DNA of 64,000 nt from Verrucomicrobiia bacterium (GTDB lineage Bacteria; Verrucomicrobiota; Verrucomicrobiia; Limisphaerales; CAIMTB01), in assembly GCA_019634625.1 (NCBI GenBank), contig JAHCBA010000005.1:136950-200949 (forward strand). The letters run 5' to 3'. This document shows, piece after piece, positions 3,588 through 15,012 of this stretch; the first letter of the stretch is position 1; every line of letters starts with the position of its first letter. The notes under the pieces were generated by a model. That model was given only the letters and a program-made list of their open reading frames with translations, did no database searches and was not told the origin of the DNA. Position numbers and translations under genes: made by a program.

Positions 3588-4989
3588 GCGTCGCCGCCCC
3601 CTTCAACCCGGGCTGCTCCAGGCCGTTGATAAACGCCACCGTCGTCTGTTCCATGCTCCCCAGCACGGCCTTGACCTTCCGGGACAACACCGAGTGCAGC
3701 AGCAACGACGGAATCGCCACGATCAACCCGAACTCGGTGGTGATCAGCGCCTCCGAGATCCCCCCCGCCAGGGTCTTCGGATCGCCCGTCCCGAACACGG
3801 TGATCATGTTGAACGTGTTGATCATCCCCGTGACCGTCCCCAGCAGCCCCAGCAACGGCGCCGCCGCCGCCGACAGCGCGATGAACGGCAGCCACTTCTC
3901 CATCCGTGGCTTGGTCTGCAGCATCTCCTCGTACATCACCTCCTCGATGTACTCCTTCGGCTCGTCCACATGCCCGATCGCCCGCTCGATCATCCTCCCC
4001 ACCGGACCCGCCACGCCGCGCGCCTTCGCCATCGCCTGGTCCCGGTTGCCCGCCTTCAGGGACGCCAGGATCCCCTGCAGGTCCAGGGGCGTCGCAATCC
4101 GGACCCGCGCGAGCTGAAACCATTTCCCCCCGAACATCCCCACCGCGAACAACCCCAGCGCCAGGATCGGCACCATCACCGGCCCGCCCTTCTTCACATG
4201 CTCCACCAGCCCGTCCTTGGTCCGCGCCAGCTTGAGCGCATTGCCTCCCGTGACATCCACCGGCAACGGCCCCGCACCCGATGCCGAAAACGCCCGGATC
4301 CATCCGGTCTCCTGCGGCCCCAGCGGCACCACCGTCGGCCCCGCCGAACCCAACTGCAGTTCCGCCAGTCCCGCCGCGTCGCTCTCCCCGCTCGTGAAAT
4401 ACGCCACCGGTCCCAGCAGCCGGAAGGTCCCCGTCTCCAGACGCCCCGCCGCGGTCAACGCCTTGCCCTCGAATCGCGCCCCCCCCGAAACCTCGCCCAG
4501 CCGGTCCAACGCCAGATCAATCACCCCCAGCATCCCCTCCAGCCGCTCGGACGGCTCCCGACCCAGCCCGGAACCCGACTCTTTCGCCGCTCCGATCCCC
4601 TCCGCCCATCGGTCCACCTCGGCAATGTGAATCCGCGTCTCGAACACCCTCAGATACTCGCCCAGCAGCGCCTCGACGAACCGCACTTCCTCGCCCCGCG
4701 CCCGTGCCAGGGCACGCTCCGCGTTGAGCACCACCAGGGCGTTCTCGTTCGCACGCTCCGCCCGGTCGAGTTCCCGTCGCCGGTCGAGCACCTGCCGCTC
4801 CAACCCGTTCACCGACTCCGCCAGCGGCAGCCGCTCCGCCTCGATGCGCTGACGCAGTTCGGACAACTCCGCCAGAGCGGCCTCGAGCCGGCTCGCGGAT
4901 CCCGCCTGCAACCCGGTCAGGGTCTCGTTCGCCAACGCCGAACCGCCCGCCAGCATCCCCGCCAGAACCCAAAGAAGACTCGTTTTCAT
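3574..4989 (-). CDS. MotA/TolQ/ExbB family protein with a long periplasmic coiled-coil N-terminal domain (TtpC-like)
   Basis: Lies in ORF 3574..5178. The start was moved to MKTSLLWVLAGMLAGGSALA (signal peptide, ATG at 4989). The C-terminal channel block is AAAPLLGLLGTVTGMINTFNMI...GGISEALITTEFGLIVAIPSLL. Confidence 0.85.
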   Translation of the reverse strand: MKTSLLWVLAGMLAGGSALANETLTGLQAGSASRLEAALAELSELRQRIEAERLPLAESVNGLERQVLDRRRELDRAERANENALVVLNAERALARARGEEVRFVEALLGEYLRVFETRIHIAEVDRWAEGIGAAKESGSGLGREPSERLEGMLGVIDLALDRLGEVSGGARFEGKALTAAGRLETGTFRLLGPVAYFTSGESDAAGLAELQLGSAGPTVVPLGPQETGWIRAFSASGAGPLPVDVTGGNALKLARTKDGLVEHVKKGGPVMVPILALGLFAVGMFGGKWFQLARVRIATPLDLQGILASLKAGNRDQAMAKARGVAGPVGRMIERAIGHVDEPKEYIEEVMYEEMLQTKPRMEKWLPFIALSAAAAPLLGLLGTVTGMINTFNMITVFGTGDPKTLAGGISEALITTEFGLIVAIPSLLLHSVLSRKVKAVLGSMEQTTVAFINGLEQPGLKGAATHGHA

Positions 4990-5009
4990 CGCTGTCCCTC
5001 CCCCCGGGT

Positions 5010-5771
5010 TCACGGCAGTTGAACCGGCAATCCCACAAACGTCGGCGGTGCCTCGTCCCGATACATGGCGATCGCCCGCCGCACCGCCGGCCCCACCTCG
5101 GGTCGCACCTCCCATACCCAGCCGTCCGGACCCGGCCGGCCCACGCCGCTGTACCGCCCCGACCGATCCGTGAACCACGCCTGGCCCAGTCCCAGATACA
5201 CGGTTTCCACCTGCACTTCCGCGCCCTCCGGACGTCGCTGCACCTCGCTCACCACCGTCACCGCGGCGTTGAACTTGTCGATCTCGTGCAGGATCCCCAC
5301 CACGTTCTGCAGCCGTTCCATCACCCCGGCCCGGCCGCTGGCCGCCGCCTCCGCCGGGATCCGTCGCACCAGCGGATCAATCTGGCTGCGCAACGGCGCC
5401 GGCAACCGCGGTGCCCATTCCCGGAGTCGTGCCTCGTATCTCCCCACCCGGTCCCGCGCCACCCCCAGCGCCTTCTCCCCCAATTCCAACTCCGCCCGTG
5501 CCTCTGCCAAATCCCGGTCGATCTGCGTCGTGTTGGTGGTGAATCCGCCCAACCGTTCCTCGATCGATCTCAGCTCGCGCTCGTACAATCCTGCCGTCTG
5601 GCGCAATAACTCGCTGTCCCGCTCCCATTCCGTCCGCGTCCGCGACAGCAGTTCCTGGGTCCGAACCCATTCCGTCACCCATTGACGCGCCCCGGCCAGC
5701 GTCCCCTCGGCCGCTGCAAACGCCCCGGCCGGAAACGCCAGCACTCCCATCAGAATGACCATGATCCGCAT
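5010..5771 (-). CDS. DUF3450-like periplasmic coiled-coil protein (TtpB-like first gene of a TonB2-type cluster)
   Basis: Lies in ORF 5010..5900. The start was moved to [19 protein letters not shown] (ATG at 5771). It has a coiled-coil N-terminus and its position directly upstream of the long ExbB matches TonB2-type clusters. Confidence 0.7.
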
Positions 5772-6021
5772 CGCGTGGCACAGTGCCCGCCGCCCGATTG
5801 CGGTATCGCGACCGATCGGTGACAACTCCGTGACAAACCCTCCCCTCCCGAAGCGCCCCGCCCCGCACGCGCCACTCTCCATGCGCACCGAAAAGCACAC
5901 TCCGTTTTCATCGCCGCCAGCGCCATTTCGGGCCAGCTACACTTGCAATCTTCCCGCCTCTCGTCGCAGCGTTCCTCCGGGAGTCGTGGCCCGGAAGTCC
6001 CCAGCCGGCTCCCCCACGCCT

Positions 6022-6894
6022 ATGAAAGCGCCGAGGACCCGTCCCTCCCTTCCCGGATTCACCCTGATCGAACTGCTGGTGGTCATCGCCATCATTGCGA
6101 TCCTCGCCTCCATGCTCCTGCCCGCCCTGGCCAAGGCAAAAAGCAAGGCCCAGGGCATCTCCTGCCTCAACAACACCAAGCAGATGATGCTCGGCTGGCG
6201 CATGTATGTGGAGGACAACGACGAACGCCTACCCGGCGCCTACGCCGCCAAGGGAGGCCCCAACGAGCGCTACGCCTGGGTGGTCGGCATCATGGACTAC
6301 AACGGCGGCAACCGCTCCAACTGGGATGTCAACGAAGACCTCGCCAAAAGCCCCCTCGCCCCCTACATCGGCAACAGCTACGGCATCTTCCGATGCCCCG
6401 CTGACAAATCCTCCGTCCAGGTCACCGCCGGCGATCGCCGCGGCCAGCGCCTCCCCCGTGTCCGCAGCATCTCCATGAATTCATGGGTCGGCGGCAATTA
6501 CGAGGATGTCCGCGCCAATCAGCTCTCCTGGTGGCATGTCACCGCCCCGCGCATGGCTCTCTATCTCAAATCCACCGACATGAAGGATCCCGGCCCGTCC
6601 CAAACCTGGGTCCTCATCGACGAGCGCGAAGACAGCATCAACGACGGCTTCTGGGTGATCTCCATGGACGGCTACCCCAACACCGCCCAGACCAAGATCG
6701 TCGATTACCCCGCCAGCTACCATAACGGCGCCGCCGGCCTCTCCTTTGCCGATGGCCACTCCGAAATCCGCCGCTGGGTCGATCCCCGGACCCGGCCGGC
6801 GCTCCGCCCCAATGGCACCATCCCGCTCAATGTGGCTTCGCCCAACAACCGGGATGTCGTCTGGCTCCAGGAACGTACCACCCGCCCGCAGTAG
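6022..6894 (+). CDS. Prepilin-type N-terminal cleavage/methylation domain protein (DUF1559-like, PVC-typical)
   Basis: Lies in ORF 5755..6894. The start is [40 protein letters not shown], a classic type IV pilin-like leader with a hydrophobic helix. The C-terminus contains FADGHSE (H-X9-DG-like). Confidence 0.85.
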
Positions 6895-7007
6895 CCCCGG
6901 CCACCCCGCGCAACGGATCGGCGCGCCGCCCGGCTCCCCGACTGCCTGGCGGCCCCGCCCGTCTGTGGGCCGGTTGAAAAACGATCCCGCACCCGTACCG
7001 TGCCGTC

Positions 7008-8717
7008 ATGGCTGAGCCGAAGAAGAAGAACCCCGCCGTTCCCCCGCCCGGCGAACCCAACCCGGAGGAGGCTCCCTTCGCGCCGCCGCCGGCCATGATG
7101 GACCTCCTCTCCCGCGAGGAACTTGACCGCCTCTCCACCCTCCAGATCCTCGACCTCATCGCCGGCAAACTGCCCCCCCGCCATTCCGCCCTCCTCGACC
7201 TGGCCTACCTCCGCGACCGCGTCGTCGGCCTCGAGGAAACCAACGACCAGGCCCGCCAGGTCATCGAGAAGTACGACGAGGCCCTCGACAAACTCCGCTC
7301 CCCCGCCCTCCGAGTCGGCACCTTCCTCGCCGCCCTCGAACCCGACCGCGCCCATGTCTGCCTCGGCGGCGCCGACTACATCTGCCGCGTCGATCCCCAA
7401 CTCGCGCTTTCCAGTCTCCAGATCGGACAGCGCGTCCTCTGCAACGAAGCCTTCGCCGTCGTCCAGGGCCTCGGCTTCGACCGCGGCGGCCCCCTCGTCC
7501 GCATCGATGAAGCCCTCTCCGACGGCCGCCTCCGCATCGGCACCGAGGCCGGTACCGCCCCCGTCGTCGTCCTTCGCTCCGCCCTGCTCGCCAAGGAAAA
7601 ACTCAAGCCCGGGCTGGAAGTCCGTCTCGATGCCAATCAACGCGTCGCCCTCGAAGTCCTCGGCGTCGGCAAACGCATCGACCGCTCCCTCGACCGCGTC
7701 ACACCCATCCCCTGGTCCGCCATCGGCGGCCAGGACGAAGCGGTCCAGGCCATCCGCGACACCATCGAACTCCCCTTCCTCCACCGCGACCTCTTCCGCC
7801 GCTTCCAGCACGCCGTCCCCAAGGGCTTCCTCCTCCATGGCCCCCCCGGCTGCGGCAAAACCCTCCTCGGCAAGGCCACCGCCTGGAACCTCCGCCAGCA
7901 GATCCTCGACGCCACCGGGGTCGAACACCCCGAGTTCTTCCTCCACATCAAGGGACCCGAGGTCCTCAATATGTGGGTCGGCGAATCCGAACGGCAGGTC
8001 CGCGACCTCTTCGCCCAATGCCGCGAACGCGCCTCCGAAGGCCACCTCGCCTTCCTCTTCATCGACGAGGCCGAAAGCATCCTCGGCGTCCGGCGCGGCG
8101 GTCGCGTCCACAGCATCCTCTCCACCCTCGTCCCCATGTTCTGCACGGAGATGGACGGCCTCGAACCGCTCTCCAATGTGGTCATCATCCTCGCCTCCAA
8201 CCGCGCCGACCTCATCGACCCCGCCATCCTCCGCCCCGGCCGCATTGACCGGAAAATCCGCGTCCGCCGCCCCGACAAGGACGGCGCCCGGCGGATCTAC
8301 GGCATCTACCTCACCGATTCGCTGCCCCTGGCCGAGCCCTCCGACACCCTGGCCGCCGCCATCGCCGACGCCCATTACGCCCGCCATCCCGACAACGAAT
8401 TCCTCGAAGTCACCTTCCGCAGCGGCCGCCGTGATGTCCTCACCCGCGGCGACGTCGCCAGCGGCGCCATCATCGCCGCCGTCGTCGAACGCGCCAAAAG
8501 CCTCGCCATCAAACGTGCCATCGCCTCCAGCACCGCCGGCGAACTCACCCGCGACGACCTCCTCGCCGCCCTCCGCCTCGAACACGCGGAAAACGACCTC
8601 TTCCCTTCCAGCGACCTGACCGAGGACTGGCTCAAACTCACGGACTTCGACCCCGAAAACGTCGTCCGCCTCGGCCCCATCCGGCCCCGTCGCGAGGAAC
8701 GGAGCGCCGTCGTGTGA
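7008..8717 (+). CDS. mpa: Proteasome-associated AAA+ ATPase (Mpa/ARC type)
   Basis: N-terminal coiled coil (LRDRVVGLEETNDQARQVIEKYDEALDKL), tandem OB-like region, Walker A GPPGCGKT, Walker B LFIDEAE, and a pore-loop-like MWVGESE. It is the first gene of the proteasome operon. Its stop overlaps the next start (GTGA). Confidence 0.9.
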   Translation: MAEPKKKNPAVPPPGEPNPEEAPFAPPPAMMDLLSREELDRLSTLQILDLIAGKLPPRHSALLDLAYLRDRVVGLEETNDQARQVIEKYDEALDKLRSPALRVGTFLAALEPDRAHVCLGGADYICRVDPQLALSSLQIGQRVLCNEAFAVVQGLGFDRGGPLVRIDEALSDGRLRIGTEAGTAPVVVLRSALLAKEKLKPGLEVRLDANQRVALEVLGVGKRIDRSLDRVTPIPWSAIGGQDEAVQAIRDTIELPFLHRDLFRRFQHAVPKGFLLHGPPGCGKTLLGKATAWNLRQQILDATGVEHPEFFLHIKGPEVLNMWVGESERQVRDLFAQCRERASEGHLAFLFIDEAESILGVRRGGRVHSILSTLVPMFCTEMDGLEPLSNVVIILASNRADLIDPAILRPGRIDRKIRVRRPDKDGARRIYGIYLTDSLPLAEPSDTLAAAIADAHYARHPDNEFLEVTFRSGRRDVLTRGDVASGAIIAAVVERAKSLAIKRAIASSTAGELTRDDLLAALRLEHAENDLFPSSDLTEDWLKLTDFDPENVVRLGPIRPRREERSAVV

Positions 8718-10240
8718 TCCAGCCCGCCCCGATCCTTTTCGGACTCGAAACCGAGTTCGGCATCGCCCGCGGCGACCACCCCGACCTCGACGTGGTCGCC
8801 GAGTCCATTGCCCTCGTCCGCAGTGCCGCCGAACCCGGCGTCCTGATGCGCTGGGATTACGCCTCCGAAAATCCCCACCGGGACATGCGCGGCTTCGACG
8901 TCGCCCAGCTCCGCCAGGACGACGACGAGGCCCGTTACTTTGCCCAGGACGCCCGGCGCGAACTCAGCTTCGCCGAGATCAAGAGCGATTTCGTCTTCGC
9001 CAACGGCGCCCGCTTCTACAACGACCACGCCCACCCGGAATACTGCACCCCGGAATGCGCCCGCCTCTCCGACCTCGTCCTCCACGACCGCGCCGGGGAA
9101 CGCATCGTCATGGCCTGCGCCGCCGCCCTCTCCCGCCAGCGCGGCGAAACCGTCCGCCTCTACAAGAACAACACCGACTTCGCCGGCCACAGCTACGGTT
9201 GCCACGAAAACTACCTCATCCCCCGCGCCCTCGACTGGAACATTCTCGCGACCGCCATCCAGGCCTTCCTGGTCACCCGCCAGATCTTCGCCGGAGCCGG
9301 CAAGTTTGCCTTCGAGGAGGAGGACCGCCTGGTCGGGCACGGATTCCAGATCTCCCAGCGCAGCGACTTCTTCAGCGAACTGCAAAGCGTGGACACCATG
9401 CAGCGGCGCCCCATCGTCAATACCCGCGACGAACCCCACGCCGACCCACGCTACTGGCGCCGCTTCCACGTCATCCTCGGCGACGCCAACATGTCCCCCT
9501 TCGCCACCTGGCTGAAGGTCGGCACCACCGCCCTCACCCTCGAGGCGATCGTCCGCGAACCCGCCCACCCCTGGCCAGCCCTCGCCGATCCCCTCGCCGC
9601 CCTCCGCACCATCTCCGCCGACCCGCACTGGCGCTGGGAAATCCGCTGCACCGACCGCTCCCCCGCCACCGCCATCTCCGTCCAGCGCGACTACCTCGAT
9701 GCCGTCCGCCAAACCTGTGACCTGTCCGACCCCGACCGTGCCGCCCTGGTGACCGCCTGGGCCGGGGTCCTCGATGACCTCGAATCCGACCCCGCCCGAT
9801 GCCGGGACCGCCTCGACTGGGTTGCCAAACATGCCCTCATCCGCGAATTCCAGGCGGCCCAGCAGATCCGTGACGACGATCCCTGGCTGCTCAGCCTTGA
9901 CCTCGAGTACCACCGCCTCGACACCGCCGAGGGCCTCTACTTCGCCCTCGAGGACTCCGGCGCCATGCGACGTGTCCCCCCGCCCGCCGATGTCGAACGG
10001 GCCATCCATTCCCCCCCCGACAACACCCGCGCCGCCGTGCGCGGCCTGTGCATCGCCCGCTTCGCCCCCTTCGTCCTCTCCGCCCAGTGGGACCATGTCA
10101 CCCTCCAGACCCGGCGTGGCCCCCTGCGCATCGACCTGACCGATCTCTTCACCCCGGAACGTCTCGAATCCCTCCTTGCCGCCCTGCACGCCGCCGCGAC
10201 ACCGGACGACTTGCGCTTTGCCCCTTCCGACGGAAACTAA
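8714..10240 (+). CDS. dop: Pup-ligase/deamidase family protein, paralog 1 (Dop-like)
   Basis: GLETEFG N-terminal motif, NGARFYNDHAHPEYCTPE, YGCHENYL and NTRDEPHAD. The N-terminal segment RWDYASENPHRDMRGFD resembles the M. tuberculosis Dop segment RWDYEVESPLRDARGFD (from memory). Its position between mpa and the modifier gene is as in actinobacteria. The family call is strong. The Dop versus PafA split is tentative. Confidence 0.8.
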   Translation: MIQPAPILFGLETEFGIARGDHPDLDVVAESIALVRSAAEPGVLMRWDYASENPHRDMRGFDVAQLRQDDDEARYFAQDARRELSFAEIKSDFVFANGARFYNDHAHPEYCTPECARLSDLVLHDRAGERIVMACAAALSRQRGETVRLYKNNTDFAGHSYGCHENYLIPRALDWNILATAIQAFLVTRQIFAGAGKFAFEEEDRLVGHGFQISQRSDFFSELQSVDTMQRRPIVNTRDEPHADPRYWRRFHVILGDANMSPFATWLKVGTTALTLEAIVREPAHPWPALADPLAALRTISADPHWRWEIRCTDRSPATAISVQRDYLDAVRQTCDLSDPDRAALVTAWAGVLDDLESDPARCRDRLDWVAKHALIREFQAAQQIRDDDPWLLSLDLEYHRLDTAEGLYFALEDSGAMRRVPPPADVERAIHSPPDNTRAAVRGLCIARFAPFVLSAQWDHVTLQTRRGPLRIDLTDLFTPERLESLLAALHAAATPDDLRFAPSDGN

Positions 10241-10260
10241 CCGCCAATCTCTCCCCGCTT

Positions 10261-10434
10261 ATGCCCGAGCAGACTCAAAAGACTCGCCCTCCCATCCCGC
10301 GCCCGTCCGGCGGAGGCGGTGAAGGACCGAAAGCCCCCGACATCGAGAAGCCCAATACCGAGGAACTCCTCAAACGCATGCGCCGCGTCGATCCCGATCA
10401 GGCGCGCCGCTACCGCCAGCGCACCGGCGAGTAA
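10261..10434 (+). CDS. ubact: Pup/UBact-like small protein modifier (57 aa, C-terminal Glu)
   Basis: ATG at 10261 inside track ORF 10048..10434. Sequence: MPEQTQKTRPPIPRPSGGGGEGPKAPDIEKPNTEELLKRMRRVDPDQARRYRQRTGE. It is small and disordered-looking, has a basic helical C-terminal half and ends in ...RTGE immediately before the stop. It sits between the Dop-like gene and prcB, exactly where pup sits in actinobacteria. Confidence 0.8.
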   Translation: MPEQTQKTRPPIPRPSGGGGEGPKAPDIEKPNTEELLKRMRRVDPDQARRYRQRTGE

Positions 10435-10458
10435 CCTCGCCCACCCCTGCTAAACTCT

Positions 10459-11238
10459 GTGGGAGACTCCCTACCCCCTCCGCTGGCGGGCGATTTCTTC
10501 GCCCTCCTGGCCCGTCACCACCTCCAGAACCCCGCGCCGGACGCCTCGGCCTCGCTGCCCCCCACCCAGATCCAGGCCACCACGGTCTTCGCCTTCCATT
10601 TCGCCGGGGGCGTCCTGATGGCCGGCGACCGGCGCGCCACCGCCGGCCACCTCATCGTCACCGAGCAGGTGGACAAAATCCTCGAACTGGACGCCTCATC
10701 CCTCCTCGCCATCGCCGGCGTTCCGGCCACCGCCTTCGAGATCGCGCGTACCCTCAAGACGTCGTTCGAATACTACCGGCGCAGCCAGTTGCAGTCCCTC
10801 AGCCTTCCCGCCCGGCTCCGCGCCCTCTCCCGCGCCCTCCGCGATAACCTCCCCCTCACCCTTCAGGGGGTCGGTGTCGTCGCCCCCCTCTTCGCCGGCC
10901 TCGACACCACCTCTTCACCACCCCGGCCCCAGATCTATTTCTATGATCCCCTCGGAGCGCAGTTCCAGGCCGCCGCCTTCGCCGCCTCCGGCTCGGGTGC
11001 CATCACCATCCGCAGTCTCCTCAGTTTTCAGGAACGGTTCGGGTCCCCCACGCCCTCCCGCCTCCCGCGCCGTGAAGCCGTCCAGCTCGCCCTCCGCGTC
11101 CTCACCGTCGCCGCGGAATTCGATACCGCCACCGGCGGCATCCAGCCCGATGCCTCCCGCTTCGCCACCCTCCGCATCCTCGGTCCGGACGGCATCTCGA
11201 CGGTGGACGATGCGGAACAACGTGACGCCCTCGGTTGA
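10459..11238 (+). CDS. prcB: 20S proteasome beta subunit
   Basis: GTG start and a 40-aa propeptide. The mature N-terminus is then TTVFAFHFAGGVLMAGDRRATAGHLIVTEQVDK. This places Thr1, Asp17 and Lys33 exactly as in M. tuberculosis PrcB ([21 protein letters not shown]...K33). Confidence 0.9.
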   Translation: MGDSLPPPLAGDFFALLARHHLQNPAPDASASLPPTQIQATTVFAFHFAGGVLMAGDRRATAGHLIVTEQVDKILELDASSLLAIAGVPATAFEIARTLKTSFEYYRRSQLQSLSLPARLRALSRALRDNLPLTLQGVGVVAPLFAGLDTTSSPPRPQIYFYDPLGAQFQAAAFAASGSGAITIRSLLSFQERFGSPTPSRLPRREAVQLALRVLTVAAEFDTATGGIQPDASRFATLRILGPDGISTVDDAEQRDALG

Positions 11239-11259
11239 CGTCCCACCCGATCCCGGACC

Positions 11260-11997
11260 ATGACTGAAGAACCCTACAGGTGGATCGAGGCGATCGGGAA
11301 CCGCCGCGAATACGTGGAAACCCAGCTCCGGGGCGGTTCGCCCGTCTTCGCCGCCAGCCTCGACGACGGGATCCTGCTCCTCGGCGTCGGCACCGGACAT
11401 TCCAAGGTCTTCGAAATCTTCGACCGCCACGCCCTCGCCGGTCTCGGGCATCCCACCGACCTCGAACGGGTCCGCCAGACGTTGATCGATGCCGCCCACC
11501 TGGAAGCCTTCACCCGCGCCTCGGCGGATGTCTCCCTCCGGCGCCTGGTCAGCTTCGGCCTCGGACCCCAGCTCAAAACCGCCTTCGAACAGCTCTTCAG
11601 CCCGCCCTTCCTCGTCCGACTCCTCCTCGCCGAAGTGGGCCAGCGCCCAACCAACGATCTCCTCGTCCGGCTCGATTTCGACGGTTCCTTCGAACTCCGG
11701 CCCGGCGGCGTGGCGATCGCAGCCGACAGCCCCTCCGGAACCGCCGCAGCCGGGGACTGGCTTGCCCCGCGCATCGATTCGTCCACATCCCTGCCCGATG
11801 CGTCCCTCTGGCTCCTCGAGGCCTGGCATCGCCTGACCGCCTCCGAACCGTTCCCGGCCGACCTCGACCGTCCCCGAACCGCGTGGACCCTCCCCGCCGG
11901 CCGTCAGGTCGAAGCCGCCCTGCTCCGCCGCACCGCGCCCGGCGAAGCCCGCTACCAGCCCCTGGACCCGGCCCAACTCGTGCCCCCCCCCGCATGA
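11260..11997 (+). CDS. prcA: 20S proteasome alpha subunit
   Basis: 245 aa Ntn-fold-like protein without an N-terminal Thr nucleophile, immediately after prcB. It has an ATGA overlap with the following gene. Confidence 0.8.
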   Translation: MTEEPYRWIEAIGNRREYVETQLRGGSPVFAASLDDGILLLGVGTGHSKVFEIFDRHALAGLGHPTDLERVRQTLIDAAHLEAFTRASADVSLRRLVSFGLGPQLKTAFEQLFSPPFLVRLLLAEVGQRPTNDLLVRLDFDGSFELRPGGVAIAADSPSGTAAAGDWLAPRIDSSTSLPDASLWLLEAWHRLTASEPFPADLDRPRTAWTLPAGRQVEAALLRRTAPGEARYQPLDPAQLVPPPA

Positions 11998-13394
11998 CCC
12001 GCGTCGTCGGTCTCGAAACCGAATACGGCTGCCTCTCCGACGACCCCGCCGGCCCGGCGGCAACCGTCGGACTCGTCCGCGGCTGGCTGTTCGAACGTCA
12101 GCGTTACGGACTGCCCGATGTCTTCCAGCGCGACTGGGATGAACCGCCCGGCAACGGCGGATTCCTGTTCAACGGCGGACGCGCCTACGTGGACATGGGG
12201 CACCTCGAATACTGCACCCCCGAGTGTCTCCAGCTCCGGGACCTCATCCTCTACGACCGCGCCGGCGATCTCCTCCTCGACGAAGCCCTCTCCTCCCTCG
12301 GCCTCACCGCACGGGCCGGCTTCATCCGCAACAACATCGACCACTACTCGGGGGCCACCTTCGGCTGCCACGAAAACTATCTCGTCCGCCGCAGCGCCCC
12401 CCTCACCGAGCGCAACGTCCTCTCCGTCCTCGCCTTCCTCACCCTTCGCGTCCTCTATTCGGGCGCCGGCCGGGTCGGCTCCTCCCTCGGCGCCGAGAAC
12501 CGCGGCGATCACCGCCGGCCCGGCGCCAATCCTCATTTCCAGATCAGTCAGCGCGCCGACTACATCAACAACGAGCTGTTCGAGTGGGTCCAGTTCAACC
12601 GCGCCATCATCAATACCCGCGACGAACCCCTCGCCGATCCCCGCCGCTTCCGCCGCCTCCACCTCCTCCACGGCGACACCAGCGTCCTCCCCTGCACCCT
12701 CGCCCTCAAAATCGGCACCACGGCGCTCGTCCTCGATCTCCTCGAAATCGACCACCTGCCCCATCTCTCCCTCGCCGACTCGGTCCAGACTTTCCGCATC
12801 CTGTCCCACCAGACCGACGGCCCCTGGGAGGTCACGCTGGCCGAAGGCGGGTCCGCCGATGCCATCGAGATCCTCGCCCGTTATCAGGCCGCCGCGTCGG
12901 CCGAATTCCGCGGTCGCGATGCCGAAACCGATGCCATCCTTGCCCTCTGGGCCGAAACCCTGGATGCCCTCTCCAAGGACCCCCAACGCCTGATCGGCCG
13001 GGTGGACTGGATCACCAAGCAATGGCTCCTCTCCCAGTTCGTGGAACGGGAGGGCGTGTCCTGGGACGATCCCTGGCTCCGCTCCCAGGACCTCGAATTC
13101 CACCACGCCTCCGTCACCCGTTCCCTCGGCCACGCCCTCGACCGTTCGCCCGATCCCTGGGCCATCCGTCAGGGGGACGCCACCAAGGCCCTCGACACCC
13201 CCCCGGCCGACACCCGCGCCCATGCCCGTTCCCAGCTCATGCGTCGCATCTCCCAGCGAGAGGGTCGCTACTTCGTGGACTGGGAGATCGTGGACATCGA
13301 GGGCTTCGAAACGCTGCACCTCCTCGATCCCTTCTCCCCCCAGCCGCCCGAGCCCAAGCCTCTCTCGGAACCGCCCGATTCAAAGCCCTCCTGA
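11994..13394 (+). CDS. pafA: Pup-ligase/deamidase family protein, paralog 2 (PafA-like by position and length)
   Basis: In the frame of track ORF 11280..13394, starting MTRVVGLETEYGCL (ATG at 11994). Motifs: GGRAYVDMGHLEYCTPE, FGCHENYL, NTRDEPLAD and LHLLHGDTS. The family call is strong. Ligase versus deamidase is not resolved. Confidence 0.8.
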   Translation: MTRVVGLETEYGCLSDDPAGPAATVGLVRGWLFERQRYGLPDVFQRDWDEPPGNGGFLFNGGRAYVDMGHLEYCTPECLQLRDLILYDRAGDLLLDEALSSLGLTARAGFIRNNIDHYSGATFGCHENYLVRRSAPLTERNVLSVLAFLTLRVLYSGAGRVGSSLGAENRGDHRRPGANPHFQISQRADYINNELFEWVQFNRAIINTRDEPLADPRRFRRLHLLHGDTSVLPCTLALKIGTTALVLDLLEIDHLPHLSLADSVQTFRILSHQTDGPWEVTLAEGGSADAIEILARYQAAASAEFRGRDAETDAILALWAETLDALSKDPQRLIGRVDWITKQWLLSQFVEREGVSWDDPWLRSQDLEFHHASVTRSLGHALDRSPDPWAIRQGDATKALDTPPADTRAHARSQLMRRISQREGRYFVDWEIVDIEGFETLHLLDPFSPQPPEPKPLSEPPDSKPS

Positions 13395-13500
13395 ACCGCG
13401 TAGGCCCATCCAGTCAACCGGGCATGAACGACGGCACCCGATCGTCAGGTTCAGTGAACCCGACCGATCGGGCGTCACGCCGACCTTCCCCTCCTTCCCC

Positions 13501-15012
13501 TTACAGGCGGTCGAAGACCAGGATGCGACCGTCCACCGAGGTCATCATCTGGCGATCCCGGATGGTCGCCTGCAGATCCAACGAGTTGCCCCCTTGGGAA
13601 ATGCGAATTCGATAGTCGTCCCCGGCCCGGGACCACTCGCCATCCCCCGTGGTCATCATCGGCGCCAGGATGGAGGACGAACTGGGCCGCGAAGGAGGAC
13701 GTCCTGGAGCCATCCGCGGAGTCGTGGTCGCCAACGGCACGCCGCGCTGCTGCACCCCACCGCCGCCACCGCCACCGCCACCGCCCAGACCGTAGCGATC
13801 CCGATAGAGATCCGCGGTGCTCTCCGTCGGCTGAGCCTGCGGCAAGGCCCGCGCCGCCAAAGATCGTGCCGTCATTCCGGAACCCGACCCAGGAGCCGAC
13901 GGGGCATACTCTCCATCCACCGGAGTCGCTGACGTGGGAGCACTCGCCGATCCCGCCCGGCCAACCACTTCCAGGAGTTTGTGCTCGTCCTTGGCCTTGA
14001 CCTTCAGGAGCGCCCGATGATCCGTGGTGAAGCCCAGCACCATCTCGTCCAAGTAAACGTTCAACGCCCGTCGAAGCAGGTTGAACTCCACCGCGGGCAG
14101 CCGCTCCGACCCGACATTGCGCATCTCCGCAATGCTGCGGCGCACGTTCAAGCGCCAGCGTCCCAGAATGCGCTCGTCCTTGAACCGGTCCGAAACCCCC
14201 GTCCGCAGGTAGGCCTCCAGATCCCGCAAATCCAACTCCAGCAACTCGTTCACGATCTCATGGTTGTCCGCCACCGCCCGAATCCGGGGATGCTCCAGGA
14301 TCTCCATCAGCCCCGCCCGCGACTGGAGCAGTGTCTGGATCTCGGGATCCCGGCCCAGGTCCGCCACTTCCTGCCGCTCCGCCATGCCCAGGAAGGGCGG
14401 ATAGCTGGCCAGCCGGCTGTGCACCGATGGATTGTGGTAAACCATCCCCAGAATGTCCGACGCGAGATAGTGCGCCTCGTCCGCAGGTTGAAACCGCTCG
14501 ACGATCCGGCTCAGGCCCGACTGCTCCATCCCCCGGGCAAATTGGTTCGCAAACCGAAGGGACATCGTCCCCTCATCCTCGTTGGCCAGCTGCGTGGACA
14601 GGTAGCCGGGCACATAGGCCACCATCCCCAGCAGGACCAGCCAGACGGTGCCCACGCCCGCCCCCACCGCCGTCCCCATGCGCCGGTTCAAACGCAGCCA
14701 CCGGGCATAGGAGTATTCGTCCGTGCTGTTCCGATACCGCTTCTGAACCCAGTAATCCACCCCCAGCGCCACCCCCAGAAACACCAGCGACAAAAGCAGA
14801 AACCCCACCAGCGGCGGCAGGTAGAACTGCCAGACCGGATTGGTGAAGCCGATCAACGGAATCAACCCGGCACACCACGCCCCCACGGTCTTCGCCAGCG
14901 CCGCGCTGACCACCAGCCCCGCCAGGCATATCGCGGATCGAATCGCACCCAGGAAGTAGCCAATGACACCTGCCAGGGCCAGGAGCAGTACGCCGACAAT
15001 CCAGATGAGCAT
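13501..15012 (-). CDS. Membrane protein with a CvpA-like N-terminal domain and a long soluble C-terminal region
   Basis: 503 aa with four N-terminal TM helices (MLIWIVGVLLLALAGVIGYFLGAIRSAICLAGLVVSAALA...), a soluble middle region and a low-complexity tail that includes a run of 10 Gly. Confidence 0.7.
   Translation of the reverse strand: MLIWIVGVLLLALAGVIGYFLGAIRSAICLAGLVVSAALAKTVGAWCAGLIPLIGFTNPVWQFYLPPLVGFLLLSLVFLGVALGVDYWVQKRYRNSTDEYSYARWLRLNRRMGTAVGAGVGTVWLVLLGMVAYVPGYLSTQLANEDEGTMSLRFANQFARGMEQSGLSRIVERFQPADEAHYLASDILGMVYHNPSVHSRLASYPPFLGMAERQEVADLGRDPEIQTLLQSRAGLMEILEHPRIRAVADNHEIVNELLELDLRDLEAYLRTGVSDRFKDERILGRWRLNVRRSIAEMRNVGSERLPAVEFNLLRRALNVYLDEMVLGFTTDHRALLKVKAKDEHKLLEVVGRAGSASAPTSATPVDGEYAPSAPGSGSGMTARSLAARALPQAQPTESTADLYRDRYGLGGGGGGGGGGVQQRGVPLATTTPRMAPGRPPSRPSSSSILAPMMTTGDGEWSRAGDDYRIRISQGGNSLDLQATIRDRQMMTSVDGRILVFDRL

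Follow-up and report, generated by a model that had tools for sequence, protein, structure and literature searches.

A glutamate-ended UBact gene in a six-gene proteasome operon of verrucomicrobial type

The window, as we call the whole 64,000-nucleotide stretch of DNA analysed here, holds a complete and apparently intact UBact-proteasome operon. Six co-directional, tightly packed genes occupy positions 7008-13394 of the + strand and encode, in order, a Mpa-like ATPase, a Dop-like enzyme, the small modifier UBact, the proteasome subunits PrcB and PrcA, and a PafA-like enzyme:

7008..8717, + strand: Mpa/ARC-type proteasomal AAA ATPase, 569 aa, with the domains Prot_ATP_ID_OB_N, Prot_ATP_ID_OB_C and AAA
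8714..10240, + strand: Dop-like deamidase/depupylase homologue (paralogue 1), 508 aa, Pup_ligase at 493 bits
10048..10260, + strand: spurious upstream extension of a 128-aa ORF, made up of 193 nt of the Dop 3' end and a 20-nt spacer, set apart by its GC3
10261..10434, + strand: UBact gene, 57 aa, ending RTGE and then TAA
10459..11238, + strand: 20S proteasome beta subunit PrcB, 259 aa, PF00227 at 75 bits and TIGR03690 at 131 bits
11260..11997, + strand: divergent 20S proteasome alpha subunit PrcA, 245 aa, recognized by TIGR03691 and PDB matches
11994..13394, + strand: second Pup_ligase paralogue (paralogue 2), 466 aa, candidate PafA-type UBact ligase, Pup_ligase at 365 bits

The translation of the 57-codon ORF reads MPEQTQKTRPPIPRPSGGGGEGPKAPDIEKPNTEELLKRMRRVDPDQARRYRQRTGE. 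A preliminary description made from the letters alone had placed its start at an ATG lying 20 nt past the upstream stop and its final Glu directly before its own stop. Both placements are accurate: the Dop-like gene stops at 10240, the ATG stands at 10261, and the gene closes with GGC GAG TAA at 10426-10434 (GAG-TAA at 10429-10434), giving a protein that ends in ...RYRQRTGE. The mechanical ORF list indeed offers a single ORF at this position, the 128-aa ORF at 10048-10434. The 71 extra codons of that ORF were said to overlap the Dop-like gene; they do so in another frame, but the overlap covers only 193 nt (about 64 codons), and the rest is the 20-nt spacer.

Composition and comparison with relatives separate the small gene from this extension. 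In the 57 codons GC1/2/3 is 0.74/0.54/0.75, values that resemble those of coding sequence in a genome of 68% GC. Across 10048-10260, GC3 is 0.52 in the frame of the extension and a coding-like 0.83 in the Dop frame, and the extension translates into a low-complexity Pro/Arg string. To place the ORF among its relatives, 80 loci were collected from GTDB species representatives with the upstream 508-aa Dop-like protein as query. Because the loci were fetched by the Dop protein, the synteny test is independent of the small ORF. The fetched Dop loci are 62-77% identical to the query protein, and almost all are labelled as Verrucomicrobiota, Limisphaerales or Pedosphaera MAGs. At least 300 nt follow the Dop match in 77 of the 80, and these served as the usable loci. 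An ORF ending in RTG[EQ] lies within 500 nt past the Dop match in 60 of these 77, so that the loss of a conserved in-frame ORF at orthologous loci, which the preliminary description had named as grounds for giving up the gene, is not what the relatives display. An ATG stands at the conserved MP[DE]Q start in 59 of the 60 syntenic copies. The previous in-frame stop lies at a varying distance in these relatives, giving ORFs of 57-97 aa, and the conserved block always begins at MP[DE]Q.

Variation among the syntenic copies falls mainly on third codon positions. Codon-position entropies at positions 1/2/3 are 0.33/0.20/1.21 over the last 36 codons (59 copies) and 0.42/0.39/1.33 over the first ten codons, a pattern that points to purifying selection on a protein. 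The exact UBact protein also occurs on the public Logan contig SRR12908348 (locus L081), where the gene call likewise gives 57 aa and the neighbouring genes are the same. Genes of this size had been described as routinely missed by annotators; here that does not hold, given this public call and the homologues that NCBI records already name. Two relatives depart from the common arrangement. In L010 (about 7500-7700) the UBact frame is broken after ...KKVDP and continues as ...AAARIT followed by a stop, either a pseudogene or an assembly error, and in L054 (about 4661-5900) roughly 1 kb is inserted between Dop and an intact UBact.

Two other readings of the ORF can be weighed against these data. 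One is that the true gene is the 128-aa ORF at 10048-10434, beginning at a GTG inside the Dop gene. Its standing as the sole entry of the ORF list at this position speaks for it, whereas the composition and translation of the extension, an upstream open stretch that varies from 0 to about 40 codons in relatives while the ATG at MP[DE]Q is nearly constant, homologues that are mostly 56-58 aa long, and the public 57-aa gene call all count against it, making this reading extremely improbable. The other is that the frame is open by chance in a GC-rich intergenic spacer and is no gene at all. Many spurious ORFs do arise in high-GC DNA, and a Shine-Dalgarno-like sequence is not visible in the 20 nt before the ATG at 10261. 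However, E-values of 1e-24 to curated profiles, at least 605 homologues, the syntenic conservation and the third-position-biased variation in 59 copies effectively refute this already, and we give it next to no credence. The 57-codon ORF is a real gene, and the 71-codon extension is non-coding in its frame. The proper annotation of the tag gene is thus 10261-10434 and not the 128-aa ORF.

The product belongs to a family with curated models. It scores 83.5 bits to the Pfam family PF20513, "Prokaryotic ubiquitin-like protein UBact" (gathering score 27.8), and 84.6 bits to the NCBIfam equivalog NF033388, "ubiquitin-like protein UBact" (cut-off 35), covering profile positions 2-54 of 54. A large protein collection contains at least 605 homologues. 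PF20513 is present in all of the best 120 of these, several NCBI records among them are named "ubiquitin-like protein UBact", and the sources among the homologues listed include Verrucomicrobiales, Limisphaerales, Candidatus Methylacidithermus pantelleriae and Nitrospira. Among the same best 120 of at least 605, 95 are 56-58 aa long, with a modal length of 57, and the C-terminal endings are RTGQ in 88 and RTGE in 32. The statement in the preliminary description that an R-[T/S]-G-[E/Q] ending marks the UBact family is thus borne out, since all 120 end in RTGQ or RTGE and both profiles match at about 84 bits.

Of the columns in an alignment of 30 UBact members, 25 are invariant, and the Y51-R52-Q53-R54-T55-G56 block is among them in its entirety. 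The residue after this block alternates: 10 of the 60 syntenic copies end in Glu, as do the closest relatives of the window's UBact among the matches listed, and the swap between Gln and Glu among close relatives amounts to a single-base change (GAA/GAG versus CAA/CAG).

The family criteria used here derive from the curated models of Pfam and NCBIfam together with the set of homologues. The window's protein matches the profiles over their full length, has 57 aa and an RTG[EQ] ending, and combines a Gly-rich N-terminal half with the KRMR[KR]VDPDQA[KR]RYRQRTG core. Its gene is linked to Dop/PafA, Mpa and proteasome genes in a host of Verrucomicrobiota type. That the host is Gram-negative, of a group such as Verrucomicrobia or Nitrospirae and not Actinobacteria, is indicated by the labels of the closest Dop loci, and a DUF1559 prepilin-type neighbour is consistent with it. 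There is no difference of substance from the family; the window's copy simply falls in the Glu-ended minority. Judged by its sequence and neighbours, the window's gene is an ordinary member of the described UBact family, in agreement with it on every point that could be tested.

The family itself has been described before. Verrucomicrobial and nitrospiral proteins were listed as Pup orthologues by Iyer et al. 2008 (PMC2588565), and the name UBact comes from a bioinformatic description by Lehmann, Udasin, Livneh and Ciechanover 2017 (BBRC 483:946), as that work is cited in PMC12751074 and PMC5751360. With the proteins listed in 2008 and named in 2017, the finding is already known. The identification from raw sequence was correct, yet it is no discovery, and pipelines now call and name the gene.

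In an AlphaFold2 model built on the 30-member family alignment, residues 1-32 have no secondary structure (pLDDT 52-57), and helices are predicted at residues 33-43 and 45-55 (pLDDT 80-87), in agreement with the disordered N-terminal half and helical C-terminal half proposed earlier from the letters. The layout is the same as that of the "bihelical unit" predicted for Pup-like proteins by Iyer et al. (PMC2588565). By direct count, residues 33-57 contain 8 basic and 5 acidic residues, and the helical half is net basic.

UBact and Pup (PF05639) share several general properties. Both have about 60 aa, a disordered N-terminus with a Gly run and a two-helix C-terminal half, and both end with a penultimate Gly followed by Glu or Gln. 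The gene order is likewise shared, with pup lying between dop and prcB, mpa upstream and pafA downstream. Corynebacterium glutamicum provides a close parallel to the window's locus, as its Pup ends in Glu and dop is retained (PMC3511204). The two proteins differ in their exact endings, which are G-G-E/Q in Pup and R-T-G-E in the window's UBact, and in the charge of the helical half. The equivalent segment of Pup, counted in a Pup sequence that was validated with Pfam, has about 2 basic and about 11 acidic residues, compared with 8 and 5 in UBact. Since the helical half is basic in UBact and strongly acidic in Pup, the binding interfaces must differ.

Profile comparisons place the two proteins in separate families. 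UBact has no match to PF05639 at E up to 10, and a control Pup scores 79.7 bits to PF05639 and nothing to UBact. A UBact profile search at E up to 10 finds no Pup chain in the PDB and returns chance matches only. Aligned by hhalign, the UBact alignment and Pup give the alignment that biology would predict, anchored at the C-terminus (LL...R.Y.Q..G[EQ]), but with a probability of 2.3%, a value at which the alignment is no evidence of homology. The comparison with Pup and UBact profiles that had been proposed as a check therefore came out in two parts: similarity to UBact is very strong, but similarity to Pup is not significant. Strict membership in the Pup family was considered and rejected, given the lack of a PF05639 match, of a PDB Pup chain and of a G-G-[E/Q] ending. 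The window's protein is a UBact that probably works in the manner of Pup. The claim that the gene encodes a Pup-like modifier is supported by the UBact profiles, by the Dop and proteasome neighbours and by the second Pup_ligase paralogue.

Two members of the Pup_ligase family flank the tag and proteasome genes. Published discriminators between Dop and PafA are a Dop-loop of about 40 residues, present only in Dop, and the "alpha-loop" region (PMC7947786). Paralogue 1 (8714-10240) scores 431.5 bits to the NCBIfam Dop model TIGR03688, below its equivalog cut-off of 492.3, as against 335.2 bits to the PafA model, and the PDB scores are 338 bits for Dop and 218 bits for PafA. Residue 100 of paralogue 1 aligns with residue 63 of paralogue 2. 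Where the Dop-loop would lie, paralogue 1 thus has about 37 N-terminal residues more than paralogue 2, and these precede the shared ...Y-[ND]-D-h-[AG]-H-x-E-Y motif. By its better Dop scores and this segment, paralogue 1 is classed as Dop-like.

Paralogue 2 (11994-13394), which is called as a 466-aa gene on the Logan contig L081, begins at an ATG that overlaps the PrcA stop (ATGA). It matches the PafA model TIGR03686 end to end (positions 2-446 of 457) and the Dop model only from position 81, with no Dop-loop region present. In score it comes close to a tie and leans slightly toward Dop, at 275.6 bits for Dop versus 262.8 bits for PafA in NCBIfam and 209 versus 190 bits in the PDB. Because of this near tie, the assignment as a ligase rests on architecture and operon position, and paralogue 2 is best described as a candidate PafA-type UBact ligase.

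The remaining genes of the operon encode the presumed unfolding and degrading machinery. All of the operon's machinery scores below the NCBIfam actinobacterial equivalog cut-offs. The Mpa-like ATPase combines two OB domains and an AAA module with a coiled-coil-like segment at its N-terminus, and scores 407.9 bits to TIGR03689 (pup_AAA), for which the equivalog cut-off is 504.75. The end of its gene runs into the Dop start, stop and start overlapping in GTGA. The C-terminus, encoded at 8670-8717, reads ...RPRREERSAVV, and in relatives with the ATPase directly upstream of Dop the tail follows the pattern ...RPR[KR]x5-6[GSRQ][IV][IV], without a tyrosine. GQYL is the docking motif of actinobacterial Mpa, and proteasome-docking tails of the GQYL/HbYX type occur in Actinobacteria and archaea. 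As the tail found here is unlike that type, docking to the 20S core may work differently.

PrcB carries a 40-residue propeptide, so that Thr1 of the mature chain (TTVFAF...) is T41 of the precursor. The mature sequence read from the translation, TTVFAFHFAGGVLMAGD(17)RRATAGHLIVTEQVDK(33), has Thr1, Asp17 and Lys33 all present; the catalytic residues are intact and the N-terminal nucleophile arrangement is preserved. PrcA is very divergent: it has no match in Pfam, the Proteasome family included, and scores 48.5 bits to TIGR03691 against a cut-off of 139. In the PDB it matches Rhodococcus and Mycobacterium alpha subunits with E = 5e-7 to 1.5e-4, over residues 13-156 alone.

The arrangement of the operon recurs among relatives. 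In a tblastn survey of the 80 related loci the commonest order is Mpa-Dop-UBact-PrcB-PrcA-PafA; it is complete in 25 of the 80, and most of the others are truncations of the same order at contig ends. In another 15 related loci, the stretch of up to 6 kb downstream of Dop contains neither UBact nor proteasome genes nor a second paralogue. Mpa and Dop are adjacent in 13 of these (L014, L016, L020, L023, L025, L027, L040, L042, L044, L056, L060, L063 and L069), and within the loci L028 and L035 Dop stands without a Mpa-like ATPase as well. Five MAG records with typical verrucomicrobial Dop-UBact loci (L021, L026, L038, L051 and L066) carry the labels Klebsiella sp., Akkermansia muciniphila, Methylomirabilota, Haliangiales or Omnitrophota; these odd labels are probably binning or labelling errors and not true occurrences.

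Known pupylation offers a model for how such an operon may work. A Pup that ends in Gln is first deamidated by Dop, which also strips Pup from substrates, and dop is hence kept where Pup ends in Glu (PMC3511204; PMC2588565). Threading of Pup into the proteasome is the work of Mpa, which binds it (PMC3511204; PMC2588565). It is very likely, in our assessment, that the window encodes UBact as a Pup-like, largely disordered modifier in a six-gene operon and that this modifier acts by a pupylation-like mechanism. Counting against this reading are the lack of significant similarity between UBact and Pup, the reversed charge of the helical half, the slight lean of paralogue 2 toward Dop, the machinery's scores under the actinobacterial cut-offs and an ATPase tail without GQYL. 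The gene itself, its family, its operon context and the intact catalytic residues of PrcB are direct results; that the tag is conjugated, what each paralogue does and that substrates are delivered to the proteasome we infer from the same analogy. The PafA-like carboxylate-amine ligase would use ATP to phosphorylate the gamma-carboxylate of Glu57, and the activated carboxylate would then form an isopeptide bond with lysine side chains of target proteins. Following Pup biochemistry (PMC3511204), a UBact with a terminal Glu should be ligation-competent as translated. Since the window's UBact ends in Glu, no deamidation step would be needed, and the Dop-like enzyme would serve mainly as a de-conjugating hydrolase. 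The Mpa-like ATPase may recognize the two-helix C-terminal half of UBact, thread the disordered N-terminal half and feed the tagged substrate to the 20S core.

An alternative is that UBact is real and conserved but exerts its effect without covalent attachment to targets; it might, for instance, regulate the Mpa-like ATPase, the proteasome or the Dop/PafA-like enzymes, or serve one of them as an adaptor. Several observations would suit such a role: the charge of the helical half is reversed relative to Pup and similarity to Pup profiles is absent; the 15 related loci described above keep Mpa-Dop, or Dop only in two cases, with no adjacent UBact, proteasome or ligase; and the literature searched cites the 2017 bioinformatic description but yielded no experiment that demonstrates UBact conjugation. 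On the other hand, G-[E/Q] stands directly before the stop in all of the best 120 homologues, with Gln and Glu interchanging, as one would predict were the reaction to take place at the carboxylate or amide of the last side chain. Moreover, the operon encodes two paralogues of the carboxylate-amine ligase family, a trait it shares with pupylation loci (PMC2588565). The invariant terminus, the interchange and the paired paralogues together support conjugation, and a non-covalent UBact appears quite unlikely.

The pupylation-like reading leaves some room for differences in detail. UBact tagging may be mechanistically distinct from pupylation and no simple copy of it, as suggested by the basic recognition helix, a candidate ligase that is equidistant from Dop and PafA, and an ATPase tail without the GQYL/HbYX tyrosine, along with some relatives in which Mpa-Dop stands with no tag, ligase or proteasome next to it. 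We regard such a departure as rather improbable. As a minimal system for reconstitution, a locus that is Glu-ended and independent of deamidation would be convenient. In the literature searched UBact conjugation is still a bioinformatic prediction, and a copy that ends in Glu and has every partner gene beside it is therefore a sensible choice for such work. This value is a trait of the whole UBact family and no discovery from this window, and little is gained here beyond good annotation.

The surroundings of the operon are ordinary chromosome. Flanking genes include those for TPR proteins, ExbB/MotA-type proteins, a DUF1559 prepilin-type protein, PhoH-PIN and a histidine kinase. Neither an Rfam nor a tRNA scan produced a match anywhere in the 64-kb window, and a promoter and terminator scan of 5600-13800 gave no more matches than shuffled sequence, so the limits of the operon are not set by that scan. 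Two features lie directly on either side of the operon:

5755-6894, + strand: DUF1559 / prepilin-type N-methylation protein, of a type typical of Planctomycetes and Verrucomicrobia
13501-15012, - strand: ORF convergent to the operon, 503 aa, with no Pfam or NCBIfam family

The cleavage/methylation motif of the first lies at residues 101-122 of the listed ORF, which puts the probable true start about 90 codons past 5755. The 503-aa ORF was considered as an accessory factor of the operon and rejected, as it has no family and, among the fetched loci, occurs only on the near-identical Logan contig L081.

The composition of the two strands is uneven across the window. GC skew runs from -0.14 to -0.30 over the first 24 kb and from +0.13 to +0.30 at 56-64 kb. 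This compositional strand bias follows gene orientation, and the confirmed genes at 5755-13394 are all on the + strand. The coding strand is unusually C-rich, with C at 71% of the third codon positions of Dop.
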